Positions 47,170-64,000 of a stretch of 64,000 bases of DNA are shown in pieces; positions within the stretch are counted from its first letter, which is position 1; each line of letters begins with the position of its first letter. The stretch is from contig CAYFWW010000005.1 of assembly GCA_964346985.1 (NCBI GenBank), positions 17,206 to 81,205 on the forward strand, written 5' to 3'. The position numbers and the translations under genes are program-made. Under the pieces are notes generated by a model, which was not told the origin of the DNA, ran no database searches, and worked only from the letters and a program-made list of their open reading frames with translations. The DNA is from an uncultured Actinomycetota bacterium (GTDB lineage: Bacteria; Actinomycetota; Aquicultoria; CAYFWW01).

Positions 47170-47347
47170 AAAGCTCTGCCTTGTACGTGAGCATTTGTGA
47201 TTGTGTGAGCCAACACATTCACAAAGGGAACTTAGCTCTATTAGCAGCTTGGATGCCAGATAATGGAACCAAAAAGTTAGTAGGAAAGTACCCACCTGAA
47301 CAAACAGGGTTCAACAATGTGATATGTCCACGGCAAGGCGGGGCTTG
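47170..47347 (+). ncRNA. ssrS: Candidate 6S RNA (SsrS/BsrA-like), about 180 nt
   Basis: 12-bp terminal stem: 47172-47183 AGCTCTGCCTTG pairs with 47334-47345 CAAGGCGGGGCT (two G-U pairs). Further interrupted helices lie inward. Own promoter. Position directly downstream of aspS matches B. subtilis 6S-1 (bsrA, aspS-yrvM intergenic region). The overlapping 69-codon ORF is Cys-rich and has no ribosome-binding site. Confidence 0.45.
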
Positions 47348-47366
47348 ACTCTGAAAGGAGATAAAC

Positions 47367-47909
47367 TTGCCAGCTAGAAGATATACATTCTTTTTATTAC
47401 TGCTTTTAATTTCAGCAATTATTATTTCAGGATGCGGAGGCGGTGGAGGTCAGCCAGCAAGTGATCAAAACACATCAAATACTGCCCAGCCTGATCAAAC
47501 CGGTGGAGACCAGCCACCAGTGCCTACAACAACAACATCAGCACAGGATAAAATCCCACGCGACTTTAAATTAAGCGATGAAATGCCGGATTTTATTAAG
47601 AAAGCAGTTTCAGAAAAGAGACCCTTTGTTATTGTCTTTTTTCTCAAGGGTGATTACACATGGAATGAAGCAAAACCTGAGATTGATAATGTTAAAGAAA
47701 CTTATAAACAGATAAGCTTCTTTTATATTGATATTGATTCAACAAAAAAAGATCCAAAAAAATCTAAACTTGCTAAAGAACTGGAAGTAAACTATCTACC
47801 AGAAATATTTCTCATAAACCAGGAAAGTAAGATTGTATATCAACATAGCGGTTATATAGATCGCGATACTTTTAAGAATGAGATTCATCAGAAGCTTTCT
47901 TTAAAGTAA
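47367..47909 (+). CDS. Lipoprotein with a thioredoxin-like fold lacking the CxxC motif; TTG start
   Basis: Signal peptide plus lipobox (IISGC). Gly/Pro/Thr-rich linker. C-terminal region with thioredoxin-like topology (…FVIVFF…YLPEIFLINQ…) but no catalytic cysteines. AAAGGAG ribosome-binding site. Confidence 0.5.
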   Translation: MPARRYTFFLLLLLISAIIISGCGGGGGQPASDQNTSNTAQPDQTGGDQPPVPTTTTSAQDKIPRDFKLSDEMPDFIKKAVSEKRPFVIVFFLKGDYTWNEAKPEIDNVKETYKQISFFYIDIDSTKKDPKKSKLAKELEVNYLPEIFLINQESKIVYQHSGYIDRDTFKNEIHQKLSLK

Positions 47910-49293: not shown

Positions 49294-49650
49294 TTGTCTC
49301 CGTTAGCAACAAATACTTTTATTGCTATTTTTATTATGCTTGGGATTTTTGCTATTGCTGCTCTTATTTATCTGATAATAACAATGAGAAATATAAACAG
49401 ATTTGTAATTTTTATGGAAAAAGAAGCAACTCCTGTATTATCAAGGCTGCAAAAAACTTTAGAAAAATTAGGAGACGAACTTGATAAAACTGTTGATATA
49501 ATAAATGATGTTCATAAAGTGAGTGAGAGAGTTAATTTAACTATTCAACTGGTGCAGGAAATAGTTACCTCTCCATTCGTTAAACTGGCCGGCTTATCTG
49601 CTGGAGCGAAAAAGATTATACAATCCTTACGTCAAAAGGAAAATGAATAG
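49294..49650 (+). CDS. DUF948 domain-containing membrane-anchored protein; TTG start
   Basis: 118 aa. N-terminal TM helix followed by a helical region with …LSRLQKTLEKLGDELDKTVDIINDV…, the DUF948 pattern. Confidence 0.55.
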   Translation: MSPLATNTFIAIFIMLGIFAIAALIYLIITMRNINRFVIFMEKEATPVLSRLQKTLEKLGDELDKTVDIINDVHKVSERVNLTIQLVQEIVTSPFVKLAGLSAGAKKIIQSLRQKENE

Positions 49651-57785: not shown

Positions 57786-59492
57786 TTGCCTGAAGAGAAT
57801 AATATTGATATAGAAAAGAAAAAAGAACTTATAAAAAATAGCAGGATGGGTAAGTTATTGCTTGATAAAGGTTTAGTGAATGAAGAACAGCTTCTCGAAG
57901 CTTTTGATTCCTCGGGTGTAAAATCTTTAGCTCATAGGCTAGTTGAGTTAAAAATGGTAAGTGAAGAAGATATTTATAAAGCTATTGCTGAGAAGATGAA
58001 TCTCGAATATATTGATTTAAATGAAAATGAGATAGACCCTAATGCGGCGACGATTATATCTGAGGAAATCGCTCGTAAGTATAATTTAATTCCTGTCAAG
58101 TTTGAGGATGAAACGATGATAGTTGCTATGGCCGATCCAGCAAATGTGCTGGCAATCGATGATTTAAGAGTTATGACTGGTTATGACATAAAACCGGTTG
58201 TTTCAAGTAGTTCAATTATAGACCATGCTATTGATGAGTATTGCGGAATGGACCAGACAGTTGAACAAATGGTCGAAGGCCTAGATGAATTTGAAGTTTC
58301 AGAAGCGCTTGAAGAAGAAGAGGCAGAAAGTGAAAATGCCCCAGTTGTAAAATTAGTTAACTTGATTATCTCGGAGTCTGTGAGAACAAGAGCAAACGAC
58401 GTTCATATTGAACCTCAGGAGAAAGATGTCAGAATTCGTTTTAGGATTGACGGTGTTTTACACGAAGTAATGCGTTCACCAAAAAAAGTTCAAAACGGAG
58501 TAATTTCAAGAATTAAAATTCTTTCAAAATTGGATATTGCTGAAAAAAGGTTACCACAAGACGGCAGGTTCGGATTGGTAATTGATGGTAAAGCAATAGA
58601 TTTTCGAGTTGCAACATTACCAACAATCCACGGGGAAAAAATTGTTTTAAGATTACTGGAGAAAGAAAGTATACTAATATCTCTTGAAGACCTTGGGCTT
58701 GAACAAGACAGCCTAGAAATTTTTTCAAAATCATTTAATAAACCATATGGAGCAATTATGGTTACAGGACCAACAGGATGTGGCAAAACTACTACTCTAT
58801 ATGCGGTTTTAAATGTCATTAATTCTATAGAAAAGAATATAATTACTGTTGAAGATCCAGTTGAATACAGGCTTGCAGGCTGTAATCAGGTTCAAGTAAG
58901 TGAAAAAGCAGGAATGACATTTGCTGCCGGTTTAAGGTCTATTTTAAGAAATGATCCTGATATAGTAATGATAGGAGAGATCAGAGATAAGGAAACAGCT
59001 CAGATTTCTATTGAATCAGCTTTAACCGGCCATTTAGTATTGTCAACTCTACATACAAACGACTCAGCGTCAACTTTAACCCGCCTGACCGAAATGGGGA
59101 TTGAACCATTTTTAACTGCTTCAGCTGTTGATAGTGTTTTAGCTCAAAGGTTGGCCAGAAGGTTATGTCCAGAATGCAAAAAAGAATATAATCCTGAAAA
59201 AGATATTATAGAAAAATATAACCTTCCTAAAAAGAAAGGTAAACCGCCAACTTTATTTAAGGCAGAGGGTTGTAGAGCCTGCAATGATACTGGATATAAA
59301 GGCCGACTGGGATTATTTGAGCTCCTTTTAGTAAGTGAGGAGATAGAAAAACTATGTGTTGACAGAGCAACAGGTGACGATATCTCAAATCAAGCAATAA
59401 AAGAAGGCATGAGAACCCTTAGGGAAGATGGAATTCTTAAAGCATTAAAAGGACATACATCAATTGAAGAAATATTAAGAGTAACTGTTTAA
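57786..59492 (+). CDS. pilB: Type IV pilus assembly ATPase PilB / GspE family, paralogue 1; TTG start
   Basis: 568 aa. GspE N-terminal domains, Walker A GPTGCGKTT, Asp and His boxes, and a tetracysteine motif CPECKK…CRACNDTGYKGR. Confidence 0.85.
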   Translation: MPEENNIDIEKKKELIKNSRMGKLLLDKGLVNEEQLLEAFDSSGVKSLAHRLVELKMVSEEDIYKAIAEKMNLEYIDLNENEIDPNAATIISEEIARKYNLIPVKFEDETMIVAMADPANVLAIDDLRVMTGYDIKPVVSSSSIIDHAIDEYCGMDQTVEQMVEGLDEFEVSEALEEEEAESENAPVVKLVNLIISESVRTRANDVHIEPQEKDVRIRFRIDGVLHEVMRSPKKVQNGVISRIKILSKLDIAEKRLPQDGRFGLVIDGKAIDFRVATLPTIHGEKIVLRLLEKESILISLEDLGLEQDSLEIFSKSFNKPYGAIMVTGPTGCGKTTTLYAVLNVINSIEKNIITVEDPVEYRLAGCNQVQVSEKAGMTFAAGLRSILRNDPDIVMIGEIRDKETAQISIESALTGHLVLSTLHTNDSASTLTRLTEMGIEPFLTASAVDSVLAQRLARRLCPECKKEYNPEKDIIEKYNLPKKKGKPPTLFKAEGCRACNDTGYKGRLGLFELLLVSEEIEKLCVDRATGDDISNQAIKEGMRTLREDGILKALKGHTSIEEILRVTV

Positions 59493-59496
59493 TTCA

Positions 59497-59525
59497 TTGA
59501 CTAAATAGGTTATTGTTTTGATAAT
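59497..59525 (+). promoter_or_regulatory. Sigma-A-type promoter TTGACT-17-GATAAT upstream of the roadblock/GTPase unit
   Basis: TTGACT at 59497-59502, a 17-nt spacer, GATAAT at 59520-59525. Followed by an AAAGGAGG ribosome-binding site and the ATG at 59566. Confidence 0.45.
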
Positions 59526-59565
59526 AAACAGAAATCTTTGATAGATCGTTAAAAGGAGGAAAAGA

Positions 59566-59985
59566 ATGGAAGACTATGAAAATATAGATTCATCTTCCAA
59601 GGGCGATAGGGTAAGACATCAAAGCAGGGCAGAAAAGCTAACAACTGCCTTAGGTGATTTACTTCAGAATTCTCCTGAAATAGAAGCGGCTGCCCTGGTT
59701 AGCCCTGATGGACTTATGGTAGCTTCGGCACTCCCAAGTCATATGCAAGAAGAAAGAGTTGCTGCTATGTCTGCAGCTATACTAAGTCTTGGAGATAGAA
59801 CAGCAAATGAACTGGGGAGGGGGAAACTTACTCAAGTATTTGTCGAGGGTGAAAACGGATTCGTTTTTTTAATGTCCTCAGGACCTAATGCTGTTTTAAC
59901 AGCACTTGCAGGTAAAGGTGCAAAGTTAGGTTTAATATTTTATGACATGAAACATGCAGCAAAGGAGATATCCGAAATTTTATAA
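59566..59985 (+). CDS. Roadblock/LC7 domain protein (MglB-like GTPase regulator)
   Basis: 139 aa. …EIEAAALVSPDGLMVASALP…ERVAAMSAAILSLG…GKLTQVFVEGENGFVFLMSSGPNAVLTALAG… matches the roadblock/LC7 fold pattern of MglB/CvnB. Confidence 0.75.
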   Translation: MEDYENIDSSSKGDRVRHQSRAEKLTTALGDLLQNSPEIEAAALVSPDGLMVASALPSHMQEERVAAMSAAILSLGDRTANELGRGKLTQVFVEGENGFVFLMSSGPNAVLTALAGKGAKLGLIFYDMKHAAKEISEIL

Positions 59986-59999
59986 TTCGATGGTAACAA

Positions 60000-61616
60000 A
60001 TGGCATTAGCTGGTAATTTAAGAGACTTTAGTCTCCCGGATATATTTCAATTAATAAGTTTAAGTAAAAAAACTGGCTCTCTGGATATTGTACGTGATGA
60101 TACAGAGGGGCATGTTTATTTTAAAGATGGTGAAGTTTTTTTTGCCATATCAAACTGGCATCAAGAGTCTCTTGGTAAAAGACTTGTTAACTCAGAAAAA
60201 ATTACCAATGAACAACTAAAAAAATCAGTAAAACAACAAAAAGAAGAGAAACAAAAACGGCGTCTTGGACAGATTCTAATCGAAAAGAAATACATAACTG
60301 AAAATGTGTTGTCAACATTTGTGCAAGAACAGATTCAAGATACAATTTTTGATCTATTCAGATGGCAAGAGGGAGAATTTAACTTTAGAGCTGGAGAAAT
60401 TCCTTCTGAGGAAGACATCGGCCTTTCTGTTTCAGTTGAAAATATTATCATGGAAGGCGCTCGCCGTCTTGAAGAATGGAATAGAATAGTTCAAAAAATT
60501 CATTCATTAGAAATGGTTTTTAATATGGCTTCAGGCCCAGGAGAAGGGACTTTTGAGATTAGCCTGAAACCAATGGAATGGAAAATAATCTGTCTTCTTG
60601 ATGGACAAAAAACAATCAAGGATTTAATTGATATTACTGGTCTTAACGACTTTGAAATTTGCCGAATTATTTATGGTATGTATTCAGCCGGCTTACTTGA
60701 AGAGGCAGAAGAAATTGAAGAGATGGAAACCGCTGAGGAAGAAGTTGAAACAGCTGAAGAAGAGATAGAAGCAGAGCAAGGTGAAGTTGAAGAAGAGGCA
60801 GAAGAAGTACTTGAAACTGAAGAAGATACTGAAAAGATAATTAAAATTGAAGAAGAAGATAAATATTCTATCGAATCCTTAGAAAAGAGATCTCAGGAAC
60901 TTTTAGAAAAACAAGAGACTAAGGAAGAACCAACTCCAGAAATAGCTAAAGCAAAGATTAAAAAAGAAGAAAGTACGAAAAGTATAAAAACTGAGGATAA
61001 ATCTAGACAACAGCAGATTAAGAAATTGCTAAAAGATCTAACCTCAAAAGGCCTTGAAGTAGATTCTGATTTTACAGAAGGGTTGGTAGACGAAGAGGAT
61101 AAGAAAGAAATTTATGAAAAGAAGAAACCTAAGAAAGAAAAGAAAGTTGAAGTTATTGATGGAAAAGAACAAATAGACTCAATAAAAATTGAAGATGATG
61201 AAGCCGTAGAATTAGCTGAAGAGCATGAGGAAAAAGAGGAGATAAAAATTGAGCTTGAAGAAGAACCTATCAAGGAAGAGCCTTCAATACCAAAGATTGG
61301 AAAGATAGATAAAGAAGAAAAAGAGCCGGTTAAAAAAGAAGAGAAAAAAGAAGAAGGACATAAGAAAAAAAAGATTACCGAGCAATCTCTGAAAGATGCC
61401 AAGCGTTTTCCTGCTGGTGTGAGATTTGCTTTAACCGAAGAACTTACATCATTGACAGGTGCTAAAAAATCTGAAGCTAAACAAAAGAAAAAACAGACTA
61501 TTGATGATAAAAAGAAAGAAAAGAGCGAAACAAAAGGGGGAAAACCAAAGGCTGAAAAGGGAGATATAACAAAGGATACTGTCTTAAGGATTATTAATAG
61601 TGTCAAAAAAATATAA
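60000..61616 (+). CDS. PATAN/DUF4388-domain protein with an approximately 300-aa Glu/Lys-rich low-complexity C-terminal region
   Basis: N-terminal GNLRDFSLPDIFQLISLSKKTGSL… is the DUF4388 (PatA-like N-terminal) signature. Residues from about 230 onward are dominated by E and K (EEAEEIEEMETAEEEVETAEEEIEAEQGEVEEEAEE…KKEEKKEEGHKKKK). Confidence 0.6.
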   Translation: MALAGNLRDFSLPDIFQLISLSKKTGSLDIVRDDTEGHVYFKDGEVFFAISNWHQESLGKRLVNSEKITNEQLKKSVKQQKEEKQKRRLGQILIEKKYITENVLSTFVQEQIQDTIFDLFRWQEGEFNFRAGEIPSEEDIGLSVSVENIIMEGARRLEEWNRIVQKIHSLEMVFNMASGPGEGTFEISLKPMEWKIICLLDGQKTIKDLIDITGLNDFEICRIIYGMYSAGLLEEAEEIEEMETAEEEVETAEEEIEAEQGEVEEEAEEVLETEEDTEKIIKIEEEDKYSIESLEKRSQELLEKQETKEEPTPEIAKAKIKKEESTKSIKTEDKSRQQQIKKLLKDLTSKGLEVDSDFTEGLVDEEDKKEIYEKKKPKKEKKVEVIDGKEQIDSIKIEDDEAVELAEEHEEKEEIKIELEEEPIKEEPSIPKIGKIDKEEKEPVKKEEKKEEGHKKKKITEQSLKDAKRFPAGVRFALTEELTSLTGAKKSEAKQKKKQTIDDKKKEKSETKGGKPKAEKGDITKDTVLRIINSVKKI

Positions 61617-61623
61617 GGTAACT

Positions 61624-62178
61624 ATGCAGACTGTAAAGATACTTATTACTGGACCATTTAACGCAGGAAAGACAACATTTATAAAGACTATAAGTGAAAT
61701 TTCAGTTGTTTCCACTGAGAGGGATATTACTGACCATACCAAATCATTGAAGCCAGAAACTACTGTTGCAATGGATTTTGGAAAGATTACAATAGATGAA
61801 AAATTAGCTCTATATTTATTCGGTACCCCTGGGCAGGAAAGATTTGACTTTATGTGGGAAACATTATCTGAAGGGATGCTAGGGTATATCTTAATGATAG
61901 ATGTTTCACGAAAAGAATCTATTAAAGAAGCTAAAACAATACTGGAATTCTTTAAAAAACTATCTGATGTACCATACATTATTGCTCTAAATAAAAAAGA
62001 TATGGCTGATGGATCTATCAATGAGGAAATATTAAGAAAGAAGCTAACTGTTGAACAGAAAATCCCTGTTGTTGAATGCAATTCTTTTGAAAAGGAAAAT
62101 GTTAAAGATGCTTTACTTTGCCTTTTATATTTAATCCTCGATCAAACTGATGAAAAGGAGAAATTAAAGAAACGGTAA
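61624..62178 (+). CDS. MglA-like small Ras-family GTPase
   Basis: About 185 aa. P-loop ILITGPFNAGKTTF, STERD switch-I-like segment, GTPGQ in place of DxxG, NKKD (NKxD). Overall pattern parallels M. xanthus MglA (…GPGLCGKTT…STETDRT…TVPGQ…NKRD). The ATG at 61624 is preferred over an in-frame upstream ATG that overlaps the previous gene. Confidence 0.75.
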   Translation: MQTVKILITGPFNAGKTTFIKTISEISVVSTERDITDHTKSLKPETTVAMDFGKITIDEKLALYLFGTPGQERFDFMWETLSEGMLGYILMIDVSRKESIKEAKTILEFFKKLSDVPYIIALNKKDMADGSINEEILRKKLTVEQKIPVVECNSFEKENVKDALLCLLYLILDQTDEKEKLKKR

Positions 62179-62182
62179 TATT

Positions 62183-62491
62183 ATGCAGGATATTCTGATA
62201 TTTAAATATTTTCTATTATTTTCTTTAATTATAGTAATCGTTTTTTTTATCACTTTTATTATATATCGGCGCAGAAAAAGAGCTAAGAAGAAACAACGCC
62301 CGGTAGAATTATATTTTAGTGATGGTTCAATGATTAAGATTGAACCTGGTACTAAACAGTATTTGACTTATAAAGCACTAGCTAATCATATGTTTAGTGG
62401 ACCTGATATAAAAGATATGCAATCTCGTAGGATAATACGCCGCTATCATAATAAGCATTTCGAGATTTTAAAAAAATCTTATCCTTCCTAA
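62183..62491 (+). CDS. Hypothetical small membrane-anchored protein with a polybasic juxtamembrane segment
   Basis: 102 aa. N-terminal TM helix, then RRRKRAKKKQR, then a roughly 60-aa soluble domain. Last gene before the terminator. Confidence 0.4.
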   Translation: MQDILIFKYFLLFSLIIVIVFFITFIIYRRRKRAKKKQRPVELYFSDGSMIKIEPGTKQYLTYKALANHMFSGPDIKDMQSRRIIRRYHNKHFEILKKSYPS

Positions 62492-62535
62492 GTTTAGAGT
62501 AAAGAAAAGCCTCTAAGTACTCTAAACGTTTTTTT
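62492..62535 (+). terminator. Intrinsic terminator closing the roadblock-PATAN-GTPase unit
   Basis: GTTTAGAGTA (62492-62501) pairs with TACTCTAAAC (62518-62527) across a 16-nt loop, followed by GTTTTTTT. Confidence 0.6.
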
Positions 62536-62595
62536 CAAAAATGCCGATGTGTTAAATGAAAAAAATCTTTATAAGTGAGGTTTTTAATTTGACTG

Positions 62596-64000
62596 CTGCT
62601 GGTCAGAGTTTCGGTGAAATACTTCTGGAATCTAAAGTAATTGACCAAGATCAACTTGTAAGTGCATTAGAAGAACAGCAGGCAACTGGAAAACCCTTCA
62701 GTCAAGTAATTGTTGAAAAAGGTTATGCGACTCAAGAAGATATTCTTTCCAAGTTAGCCGAACTTCTTGGTTTGCCATATGTTAATTTAAATGAATATGA
62801 AATAAATGTCAGCGCTGTGGCTTTAGTCCCTGATAATTTAGCTCGTAAATATATAGCTATACCAATAGATTTCGATAATGAAAGATTAGTAGTAGCTATG
62901 GCCGATCCTGAAAATATGATGGCAATCGACGACCTAAGAATTGTTACCGGTTATGACATTAAATCAGTCGTGGCAACAAAAGACGGGATATTGAGTGCTA
63001 TCGAGAGATATTGTAAGTCAGAGTCAATGGAAGATGCTTTCCAAGACTTAGATGTTGGTGAAGAAGAAAATGAACTGACCAAGCTTCATGAAATTTCTGA
63101 AGATGCACCAATAGTAAAACTGGCTAATTTAATAATTACCAGAGCAGTTAAAGAAGGAGCTTCAGATATTCATATTGAACCACAGGAAAAAGATATCAGA
63201 GTAAGATACAGGATAGATGGTGTTCTACACGAAGTTATGAAGTCGCCGAAAAAGATTCAACCAGCCCTTCTGTCTAGGTTTAAAATAATTGCAAGCTTAG
63301 ATATTGCTGAAAAAAGAAAACCTCAGGATGGTCACTGCGGTTTAAATATAGCTGGAAAAGTTGTTGATTTTCGTGTGGCGACATTACCGACTGTATATGG
63401 GGAAAGGATAGTCCTTAGAATCTTAGAAAAAGAAAGTATCTTACTTGACCTTAATGATTTAGGTTTTTTAAAAGAATCACTAGATAAGTTCAGGAATGCA
63501 TTTATGCAACCCTATGGTGCAATTTTTATTACTGGGCCAACTGGAAGCGGTAAGTCCACCACTCTATATGCAACATTAAATGTTTTAAATACCGAAGATA
63601 AAAACATAGTAACAATTGAAGACCCAGTTGAATACCGCTTACCTGGAATAAACCAAGTACAAATTAATGCCAGGGCTGGCCTATCTTTCTCTAGAGGATT
63701 ACGGTCTATTCTACGCGCGTCTCCTGATATTGTAATGGTAGGGGAGATAAGAGATCATGAAACTGCACAAATTGCTATAGAAGCTGCTTTAACAGGTCAT
63801 TTGGTTTTTTCCACCTTACATACAAATGATGCTCCGGGAGCTATAACCAGACTAACTGAAATGGGTATCGAACCATTTTTAACAGCTTCAGCCCTATCCT
63901 GTATTCAAGCACAAAGGTTAGCTAGAAAACTGTGTTCAGATTGCAAAGAACCTTTCAAACCTACTTCTAAGGTTATTAAAGAGTACGGATTAAAGATAAA
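62596..64000 (+). CDS. Type IV pilus assembly ATPase PilB / GspE family, paralogue 2 (3'-truncated by the window edge)
   Basis: Same domain order as paralogue 1: N-terminal GspE_N (…MADPENMMAIDDLRIVTGYDIK…), Walker A GPTGSGKST, and the start of a Cys motif (CSDCKE). TTG at 62596 with a GAGGT ribosome-binding site; an ATG at 62556 is the alternative start. The frame stays open to position 64000. Confidence 0.8.

Follow-up and report, generated by a model that had tools for sequence, protein, structure and literature searches.

The 64,000-nucleotide stretch of DNA analysed here (contig CAYFWW010000005.1, positions 17,206 to 81,205; hereafter the window) carries a four-gene cassette encoding a Roadblock/LC7 protein, a PATAN (DUF4388) protein, a small Ras-like GTPase and a small membrane protein, set between two genes for type IV pilus assembly ATPases that we call PilB1 (upstream) and PilB2 (downstream). 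The cassette recurs as a conserved partner of the type IV pilus genes in Actinomycetota and related lineages, and the window is one more member of a cassette family known by computation, with a PilB pair that is shared with few relatives. On balance we lean towards the view that the cassette would be a G-protein system dedicated to regulating the machinery of type IV pilus extension, acting on PilB/PilC through the PATAN protein.

Conservation of the cassette beside the pilus genes

Conservation was assessed in the 80 GTDB species genomes that hold the closest relatives of the GTPase (43-61% identity), onto which the window proteins were mapped by tblastn. In the 63 Actinomycetota loci, the PATAN gene lay directly upstream of the GTPase gene in 57/57 cases and the Roadblock gene upstream in 56/56, and PilB followed downstream in 47 of the 52 loci with at least 3 kb of flank. 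In Actinomycetota the genes usually run alaS-ruvX-mltG-aroE-Robl-PATAN-GTPase-(small gene)-pilB-pilT-pilC; the cassette-pilB order recurs in independent metagenome contigs, and the PATAN stop abuts or overlaps the GTPase start in nearly all loci. A basal group including Candidatus Solincola has the order mltG…Robl-Robl-PATAN-GTPase-aroE-pilB-pilT-pilC, so that aroE changes side between basal Actinomycetota and Actinomycetes and the cassette and pilB stay neighbours regardless. A preliminary description of this DNA, made from its letters, had taken the four genes for an insert in the pilus locus; they are instead near-universal neighbours of pilB-pilT-pilC in Actinomycetota and not private to the window. 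In Chloroflexota and Aquificota the PATAN gene was directly upstream of the GTPase in 14/15 loci, with Roadblock upstream in 7/13 and PilB downstream in 0/10.

The nature of the locus is given by L002, a relative 98% identical to the window, where the PilB2 homologue is complete (568 amino acids) and is followed by PilT, PilC, an N_methyl pilin, PilD (Peptidase_A24), minor pilins and PilM (PilM_2), which makes this a type IV pilus locus, as had been claimed. PilB, PilT, PilC, prepilin, prepilin peptidase and PilM, the genes expected together in a type IVa pilus locus, are all found across the window and L002, and it is pilus genes, not type II secretion or competence genes, that stand after the second ATPase.

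Two variants of the order were seen within Actinomycetota. The basal loci L027, L035, L038, L041, L044 and L046, which include Candidatus Solincola sediminis, hold two tandem Roadblock genes, and their PATAN proteins of 1081-1465 amino acids have Glu/Ala/Pro-rich tails of 850-1230 amino acids and a shared C-terminal helix. In L004 (11614-15515) and L006 (10998-19066), glycosyltransferase, polysaccharide-flippase and Wzy_C genes lie between the cassette and pilB, possibly for pilin glycosylation.

Architecture of the locus and its proteins

The features of the locus are as follows (positions in the window; nt, nucleotides; aa, amino acids).

57786-59492, plus strand: PilB1, PilB/GspE-type assembly ATPase, 568 aa, starting 1 nt past the aroE stop
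59497-59525, plus strand: promoter-like site TTGACT-17-GATAAT, within the 73-nt PilB1-Roadblock spacer
59566-59985, plus strand: Roadblock/LC7 protein, 139 aa, Robl_LC7 match 1.7e-19
60000-61616, plus strand: PATAN protein, whole, 538 aa, DUF4388 match 7e-38
60000-60704, plus strand: PATAN (DUF4388) domain and winged-helix-like subdomain, residues 1-235
60168-60332, plus strand: α-clip insertion in PATAN, residues 57-111, homologous to the MshEN_N repeats of PilB N-termini that bind cyclic di-GMP (c-di-GMP)
60705-61559, plus strand: acidic E/K-rich linker of the PATAN protein, residues 236-520, partly helical, of variable length in the family
61560-61616, plus strand: C-terminal amphipathic basic helix of the PATAN protein (…DITKDTVLRIINSVKKI) and stop codon
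61600-62178, plus strand: small Ras-like GTPase, MglA family, GTPGQ type, 192 aa, with Ras/Arf/small_GTP matches
62183-62491, plus strand: small membrane protein, 102 aa, with N-terminal transmembrane helix, polybasic stretch and motif VELYFSDGSMIKIEPGTKQYLTYKALANHMF
62303-62395, plus strand: conserved motif VELYFSDGSMIKIEPGTKQYLTYKALANHMF of the small protein, residues 41-71
62492-62535, plus strand: intrinsic-terminator-like hairpin, 10-bp stem at 62492-62527, then G and U7
62589-64000, plus strand: PilB2, PilB/GspE-type assembly ATPase, running off the window end, alternative start ATG 62556

All four genes named in the preliminary description are thus present, and the profile searches it called for return Robl_LC7, DUF4388 and Ras/Arf/small_GTP. 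The ATPases on either side are there too, although the start it gave PilB2 (62596) is out of frame: PilB2 begins at TTG 62589, which has GAGG 9 nt ahead of it, or at an ATG of the same frame at 62556, the start chosen in the L002 gene call.

The cassette genes lie on one strand and are closely spaced: gaps of 14 nt and 4 nt, plus a 17-nt overlap between PATAN stop and GTPase start, indicate one transcription unit. A promoter-like site and a terminator-like hairpin of its own appear to serve this unit. The near-consensus promoter proposed at 59497-59525 matches the consensus hexamers at 10 of 12 positions, and L093, a diverged relative, has TTGACA-16-GATAAT at the equivalent intergenic position, with both hexamers kept and the spacer wholly different; such sites are, however, not enriched in the window (29 found, against 27.6 +/- 5.9 in shuffled sequence). 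The proposed intrinsic terminator is borne out by its stem and U-tract, folds at -12.7 kcal/mol (z = -2.76) and is retained in L002 with one change at the stem base; a terminator scan that accepted only stems with 3 or more G-C pairs and loops of 3-8 did not flag it. The L093 sequence itself (scaffold JABAOF010084547.1) is chimeric around 680-760, where a diverged PilB1 end, intergenic region and Roadblock start are joined via 'NN' to a promoter region and Roadblock start identical to those of the window, the Roadblock 5′ end thus being present twice.

Among Pfam and NCBIfam models the GTPase matches ATP_bind_1, Arf, Ras and TIGR00231 small_GTP. Its motifs are G1 GPFNAGKT, G2 ETTVAMDFG, G3 LFGTPGQERF, G4 NKKD and, in the G5 region, ECNSFEK, and those of G2 and G3 (TTVAMDFG, LFGTPGQERF) are invariant in 89 relatives bar conservative changes at a few flanking positions. 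The second Thr of ETTVAMDFG aligns with the switch I Thr of Rab proteins and is preceded by another Thr, not by an intrinsic arginine finger, and the catalytic Gln (Gln79) is present. Between G1 and G2 lies a 12-residue insertion, a gap in the Rab3C alignment, which is a bacterial MglA-type feature. Among solved structures, Rab35 (1.6e-9) and T. thermophilus MglA (2.6e-8) are about equally remote from the protein, and a fold search with its AlphaFold model ended in a tie of Sec4, MglA and Arf (E ~1e-10 to 1e-9), so that the fold does not settle the family.

The motifs are more informative. Group 1 MglA proteins (Myxococcus, Thermus, SofG) have TVPGQ in G3 and an arginine finger beside the G2 Thr, and Groups 2-5 of the MglA family have GTPGQ in G3 and Thr at the arginine-finger position (Wuichet and Sogaard-Andersen 2014, PMC4316618). 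Both marks of MglA sensu stricto are missing from the window protein, which has Gly where TVPGQ has the Thr that replaces the Asp of Ras, and no arginine finger; it does have the GTPGQ and Thr of Groups 2-5, the G1-G2 insertion and a Roadblock partner with an Asp-Gly pair. Because G4 is the canonical NKKD, a trait of Groups 4 and 5, and the relatives fall in Actinomycetota, Chloroflexota and Aquificota, the range of Group 5, we file it as a non-Group-1 member of the MglA family, probably of Group 5, an assignment made on motifs and taxonomy. The MglA-like GTPase that had been claimed therefore holds for the MglA family broadly, with a Roadblock partner and a PATAN neighbour, and fails for the strict MglA type (GTPGQ, TT). 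Many Actinomycetota copies are without an NKxD G4 and have NRxxG, ARSIPE, ATRIED or LTRADR there (L004, L008, L027, L041, L067 and L072 are examples); G1-G3 are invariant in these copies, and NKxD is kept in the window, Chloroflexota and Aquificota.

The Roadblock gene sits two genes upstream of the GTPase. Its product is closest among solved structures to an unnamed Robl protein (7f8m, 3e-27), followed by the conservon protein CvnB5 (1e-12) and, far more weakly, MglB (8e-3), and it carries a conserved Asp-Gly pair (SPDGLM), a trait of the MglB partners of Group 2-5 GTPases (PMC4316618). Judged by these similarities the protein looks CvnB-like rather than MglB-like; of the earlier assignment (MglB-like Roadblock/LC7), the Roadblock/LC7 part is confirmed.

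In the PATAN protein the DUF4388 match falls in two stretches, and most of residues 1-240 are modelled by AlphaFold2 with a predicted local distance difference test score (pLDDT) >90. The α-clip scores 44.5 with NF053729, an MshE-related c-di-GMP motif model whose cut-off is 38, and can be aligned with residues 20-82 of PilB (6olj, 1e-4). The MshEN domain is a tandem 24-residue motif, RLGxx(L/V/I)(L/V/I)xxG(L/V/I)(L/V/I)xxxxLxxxLxxQ (PMC5013675); the second half-motif of the α-clip, RLGQILIEKKYITENVLSTFVQEQ, fits a relaxed form of this pattern at 10/11 positions and the first half, by hand count, at 8/11, with R1 of motif I and both turn glycines replaced (E66, K97). The PATAN proteins of the window and of Actinomycetota carry the α-clip, whereas the shorter ones of Chloroflexota and Aquificota lack it, and its presence tracks pilB adjacency (47/4/1/9). 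No Response_reg match was found in the PATAN protein, which thus does not have the PatA-type architecture.

The E/K-rich tail that had been described is confirmed (residues 236-538, 303 aa, 25% E and 20% K). Its linker is modelled mostly at pLDDT <50, with three helices at 239-349, and in the family the acidic linker ranges from 0 aa in Aquificota through 100-290 aa in Actinomycetes and 303 aa in the window to 850-1230 aa in the Solincola group. The PATAN proteins of Actinomycetota, Chloroflexota and Aquificota end in the same motif, [R]DPx[VI]x[RK]xL[LI]xR[LI][IM]xG[VI][RK]GL-COOH, a helix predicted confidently (pLDDT ~90) with a hydrophobic moment of 0.57, against 0.34 in shuffles, and a net charge of +2.2. 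It may be a membrane-targeting helix or a tethered peptide that binds the GTPase/Roadblock complex, and the data favour neither.

A kinship of the PATAN protein with CvnC/DUF742 was considered and dropped, as DUF742 is absent among the 25 families listed (the ones with the most member matches, E up to 1) when 62 relatives were scanned with Pfam; its resemblance to the conservon middle gene would be a positional analogy only. A metagenome scan with the PATAN domain gave five loci. In L089 (10001-20284) a close PATAN relative (55% identity, 249 aa) stands at the head of a PATAN-CheR/TPR-REC-PilB-like ATPase-CheW-CheW-MCP-CheA-CheB cluster, whose ATPase (MshEN and T2SSE, 622 aa) provides an independent PATAN-PilB-type linkage inside a chemosensory operon.

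The small protein has no Pfam or NCBIfam family match. It has one N-terminal hydrophobic helix followed by RRRKRAKKKQR, in agreement with the small polybasic membrane protein described before. The gene that follows the GTPase encodes a protein ending in VxLGFxDGSxxxLxxxDPxxxAΦRxΦAxxL in 32 loci, which are all of Actinomycetota type, and a hidden Markov model of this motif, built with the window excluded, matches one of the 819 six-frame open reading frames (ORFs) of the window, namely the small protein (E = 0.002). A jackhmmer search started from the window small protein recovered only near-identical copies, and the homology of the fourth gene therefore rests on this weak score and on syntenic position. 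A clear N-terminal transmembrane helix is found in the window lineage only; the actinobacterial proteins start with a basic MRWxxRR…GRHA segment.

The window most likely comes from an uncultured lineage of unusually low GC (35%) near basal Actinomycetota, to judge by its proteins. The best non-self AlaS match has 56% identity; named matches at 50-53% are mostly 'Actinomycetota bacterium' metagenome-assembled genomes (MAGs), Candidatus Aquicultorales, Geothermincolales and Hakubella, plus one entry each from Bacillota, Anaerolineae and Atribacteria, and the best named relatives of the PATAN domain (54-61%) are Actinomycetota, Coriobacteriia and Anaerosomatales MAGs. The lineage had been called Bacillus/Clostridia-like from its housekeeping genes; however, the upstream order ruvB-queA-tgt-secDF-recJ-relA-dtd-hisS-aspS-rarA-alaS-ruvX-mltG-…-aroE does not single out that group. 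Its alaS-ruvX-mltG-aroE part is seen directly in Actinomycetota loci, the longer ruvB-to-aroE order is also typical of Actinobacteria, and a Coriobacteriia MAG (L090, below) has the same gene order around the cassette.

Elsewhere in the window, a 6S/SsrS RNA lies at 47170-47348 on the plus strand between aspS and a 180-aa ORF (Rfam RF00013, 98.6 bits, full length), the sole Rfam match across the 64 kb. Two plus-strand ORFs on either side of the MgsA/RarA gene, 47367-47909 (180 aa) and 49294-49650 (118 aa), have no Pfam match at 1e-8. In Actinomycetota loci the stretch from rarA to alaS contains DUF948 and DUF6167 genes.

Proposed action of the cassette and its alternatives

In the scheme that we propose, the GTPase would be the switch, with a catalytic Gln and without an intrinsic Arg finger, and the Roadblock dimer would be its regulator of GTPase-activating protein (GAP) type, like MglB, the Roadblock GAP of MglA (PMC3199381), and as proposed for conservon Roadblocks. 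The PATAN protein would read or set the GTPase state and serve as the output or adaptor. A regulatory role for this middle gene is suggested by MfpC, which is encoded between the conservon Roadblock and GTPase genes and is the reported guanine nucleotide exchange factor (GEF) of MfpB (PMC11343762). Through its PATAN domain with the PilB-like α-clip, the protein would contact PilB at its N-terminal region, PilC at its cytoplasmic domain, or both, as in the cyanobacterial PATAN regulators; in Synechocystis the PATAN domain alone binds the N-terminal half of that organism's PilB1 and the N-terminal domain (NTD) of PilC, and reverses pilus-driven phototaxis (bioRxiv 10.1101/2021.06.11.447907). Such contact would permit or block pilus extension at a given place or time. 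The basic amphipathic helix at the end of the variable acidic linker would anchor the PATAN protein, either in the membrane or on the complex of GTPase and Roadblock; the small membrane protein, which bears the DGS motif, would be a fourth subunit placing the complex at the membrane, and c-di-GMP could be a second input via the α-clip. As to output, sequence does not discriminate between cell polarity, pilus number and timing.

A more far-reaching version of this scheme is tentative, and we consider it possible rather than probable: that the Roadblock protein, the GTPGQ-type GTPase with no arginine finger, a PATAN adaptor (which would mimic the PilB N-terminus by its c-di-GMP-type α-clip and be joined by the acidic linker of variable length to the terminal amphipathic helix) and a DGS-motif membrane subunit form an ancestral four-subunit device dedicated to controlling the extension motor in Actinomycetota and relatives, which would integrate GTP and c-di-GMP and have been subfunctionalised over two PilBs in the clade of the window. 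If true, the long-sought effectors of the non-Group-1 MglA-family GTPases would be the PATAN proteins as a class.

Several observations weigh against a dedicated pilus regulator. No pilB lies within 10 kb of the PATAN-GTPase pair in Chloroflexota and Aquificota, so the pair is not intrinsically tied to pili, and since alaS-ruvX-mltG-aroE synteny is equally conserved, the linkage in Actinomycetota could partly be frozen gene order. The correlation of α-clip and pilB amounts to two or three independent lineages only, and with the turn glycines and the first Arg missing, c-di-GMP binding by the window α-clip is doubtful. The degenerate G4 of many Actinomycetes copies makes guanine specificity uncertain there. 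One PilB-linked locus, in the 61% GC Coriobacteriia MAG L090 (8267-13294), is without the Roadblock and small genes, from which PATAN-GTPase appears to be the minimal core of the cassette. No experimental test of any cassette member, and no measured interaction or activity, was found in the literature that we searched.

The preliminary description had proposed a GTPase switch that chooses between the two flanking PilB motors or regulates them in space. Both motors match PilB-type models: PilB1 matches T2SSE at 1e-141 and MshEN at 5e-21, PilB2 at 7e-123 and 3e-22, and the best NCBIfam model of each is TIGR02538 PilB (634 bits for PilB1). Two full-length paralogues do flank the cassette, an arrangement found in four places, namely the window, a related low-GC species (L092, L093), another contig (L091) and L090, whose gene order otherwise equals that of the window from the AI-2E transporter to the minor pilins. 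The paralogues also differ in the region where PATAN binds PilB1 in Synechocystis, as PilB2 passes NF053729 with 47.7 and PilB1 fails with 32.8. The N-terminal motif regions (57786-57950 in PilB1, 62589-62760 in PilB2) each have one good and one degenerate half-motif, the degenerate half of PilB1 being the second, and the difference in score hints at a divergence in regulation. However, a PilB upstream of the cassette was found in 0/47 GTDB Actinomycetota loci, so that in most lineages the cassette works with a single PilB, and with the pair limited to a small clade, choice between motors cannot be the core job of the module. PilB1 and PilB2 share 56% identity, no closer to each other than either is to other actinobacterial PilBs, and in 158/200 neighbour-joining bootstraps the window and L090 PilBs, four in all, group to the exclusion of the others. 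The duplication is thus old but restricted to this clade, and it postdates the cassette. When the upstream and downstream copies of the window were paired with those of L090, orthology received 62 and 102 of 200 bootstraps, neither grouping being decisive. The two paralogues are a later elaboration in this clade and not the reason for the module's existence; a motor-selecting switch is thus improbable, and would be at most a secondary, clade-specific specialisation.

We rate as equally improbable a conservon-like module with gene expression as its output, in which the winged-helix-like subdomain of PATAN would bind DNA and control transcription of the pilus operon or other genes by GTPase state. 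Weak TrmB, MarR and HTH matches in 12/62 PATAN relatives speak for it, together with a Roadblock protein closest to CvnB among named structures and a GTPase ~60% identical to Actinomycetes proteins labelled 'ATP/GTP-binding protein' by their sources. Yet winged-helix folds often mediate protein-protein contacts, the long acidic tail is unfavourable for DNA binding, and Han et al., who argue against DNA binding by PATAN regulators, show that these localise to the membrane and bind PilB/PilC (bioRxiv 10.1101/2021.06.11.447907). Moreover, neither a histidine kinase nor a DUF742 match was found in the six locus proteins (Pfam, NCBIfam), and a cassette without the CvnA kinase and DUF742 is not a conservon.

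Least probable of all is a non-pilus role (cell envelope, glycan export or growth-zone placement) with pilB as a frozen neighbour: the alaS-ruvX-mltG-aroE block, the glycosyltransferase, flippase and Wzy genes between cassette and pilB in some Actinomycetes and the Chloroflexota and Aquificota versions without nearby pilB fit it, but cassette and pilB remain neighbours though aroE switches side, the PilB-derived α-clip occurs in the PATAN of pilB-linked lineages only, and cyanobacteria provide independent experimental PATAN-PilB links.

Relation to known systems

How a small GTPase controls type IV pili is understood for Myxococcus-type MglA only, and most Group 2-5 MglA-family GTPases, like most PATAN proteins outside cyanobacteria, have no known function. 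Pilus regulation in Actinobacteria is essentially unexplored, and the carriers of the cassette include the abundant freshwater Nanopelagicales. Here four genes, for such a GTPase and for a Roadblock, a PATAN and a small protein, form a fixed set beside pilB-pilT-pilC in dozens of Actinomycetota species and a low-GC relative, and they offer a testable chain from GTPase state to PATAN to PilB/PilC, with the C-terminal helix and the DGS motif as specific sites. The neighbourhood of PATAN and MglA/MglB is already published (Makarova 2006; Wuichet and Sogaard-Andersen 2014, PMC4316618). We found no paper on the pilus-locus cassette of Actinomycetota, the PATAN terminal helix or the fourth gene, and the earlier statement that no such switch has been characterised in the lineage stands as far as the searchable literature shows.

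With the MglA/MglB systems of M. xanthus and T. thermophilus (Group 1), the cassette shares a small Ras-like GTPase with a Roadblock gene nearby, the G1-G2 insertion and a link to pili, and the fold of the window GTPase matches MglA as well as any Rab or Arf. It differs in having GTPGQ instead of TVPGQ in G3 and TT instead of RT, in the marginal similarity of its Roadblock protein to MglB, in including PATAN and small-protein genes, and in lying inside a pilus locus, whereas mglBA is not beside its partners (PMC4316618). SofG/BacP of M. xanthus, in the account of PMC4316618 citing Bulyha 2013, is likewise a small GTPase dedicated to positioning PilB and PilT; SofG is, however, a Group 1 protein with an arginine finger, bactofilin-dependent, not in a pilus locus and, in that account, with no known Roadblock partner.

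The conservons (CvnA-D, and the mycobacterial Mfp operon) have the same order of Roadblock, middle protein and GTPase, and the CvnB5 match and GTPGQ/TT are further likenesses. The window locus is unlike them in having no CvnA kinase, a PATAN rather than a DUF742 middle protein and pilus genes as neighbours, and the signature of the conservon Group 2 (NxFD, DAR) is replaced by NKKD in G4 and ECNSFEK in the G5 region.

Two systems resemble the PATAN protein in particular. The cyanobacterial PatA-type regulators (PixE, PixG, LsiR and PilG of Synechocystis) have a PATAN domain with an α-clip insertion, and in their case this domain suffices to bind PilC-NTD and the N-terminal half of PilB1 and to direct pilus-driven movement; the window protein has no receiver domain, its input would be the GTPase, and its C-terminus is an acidic linker with a helix. 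The α-clip also resembles the MshEN c-di-GMP receptor (Wang et al. 2016, PMC5013675), as it passes NF053729 and aligns to PilB N-termini, but unlike that receptor has the first Arg and both turn glycines replaced.

The nearest counterpart is MglA Group 5, which has GTPGQ, Thr for the Arg finger, a canonical NKxD G4, a Roadblock protein with the Asp-Gly pair and an occasional PATAN neighbour, is spread over Actinobacteria, Chloroflexi and Aquificae and is known only from comparative genomics. The main text of PMC4316618 gives this group varied neighbourhoods, with PATAN occasional and no pilus linkage, whereas the closest 80 relatives compared here have a near-constant Roadblock-PATAN-GTPase order and, in Actinomycetota, linkage to pilB. 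To this picture the present analysis adds a C-terminal helix found family-wide at the end of an acidic linker that spans 0-1230 aa, the conservation of the fourth gene, and a PilB-like α-clip where the module adjoins pilB.

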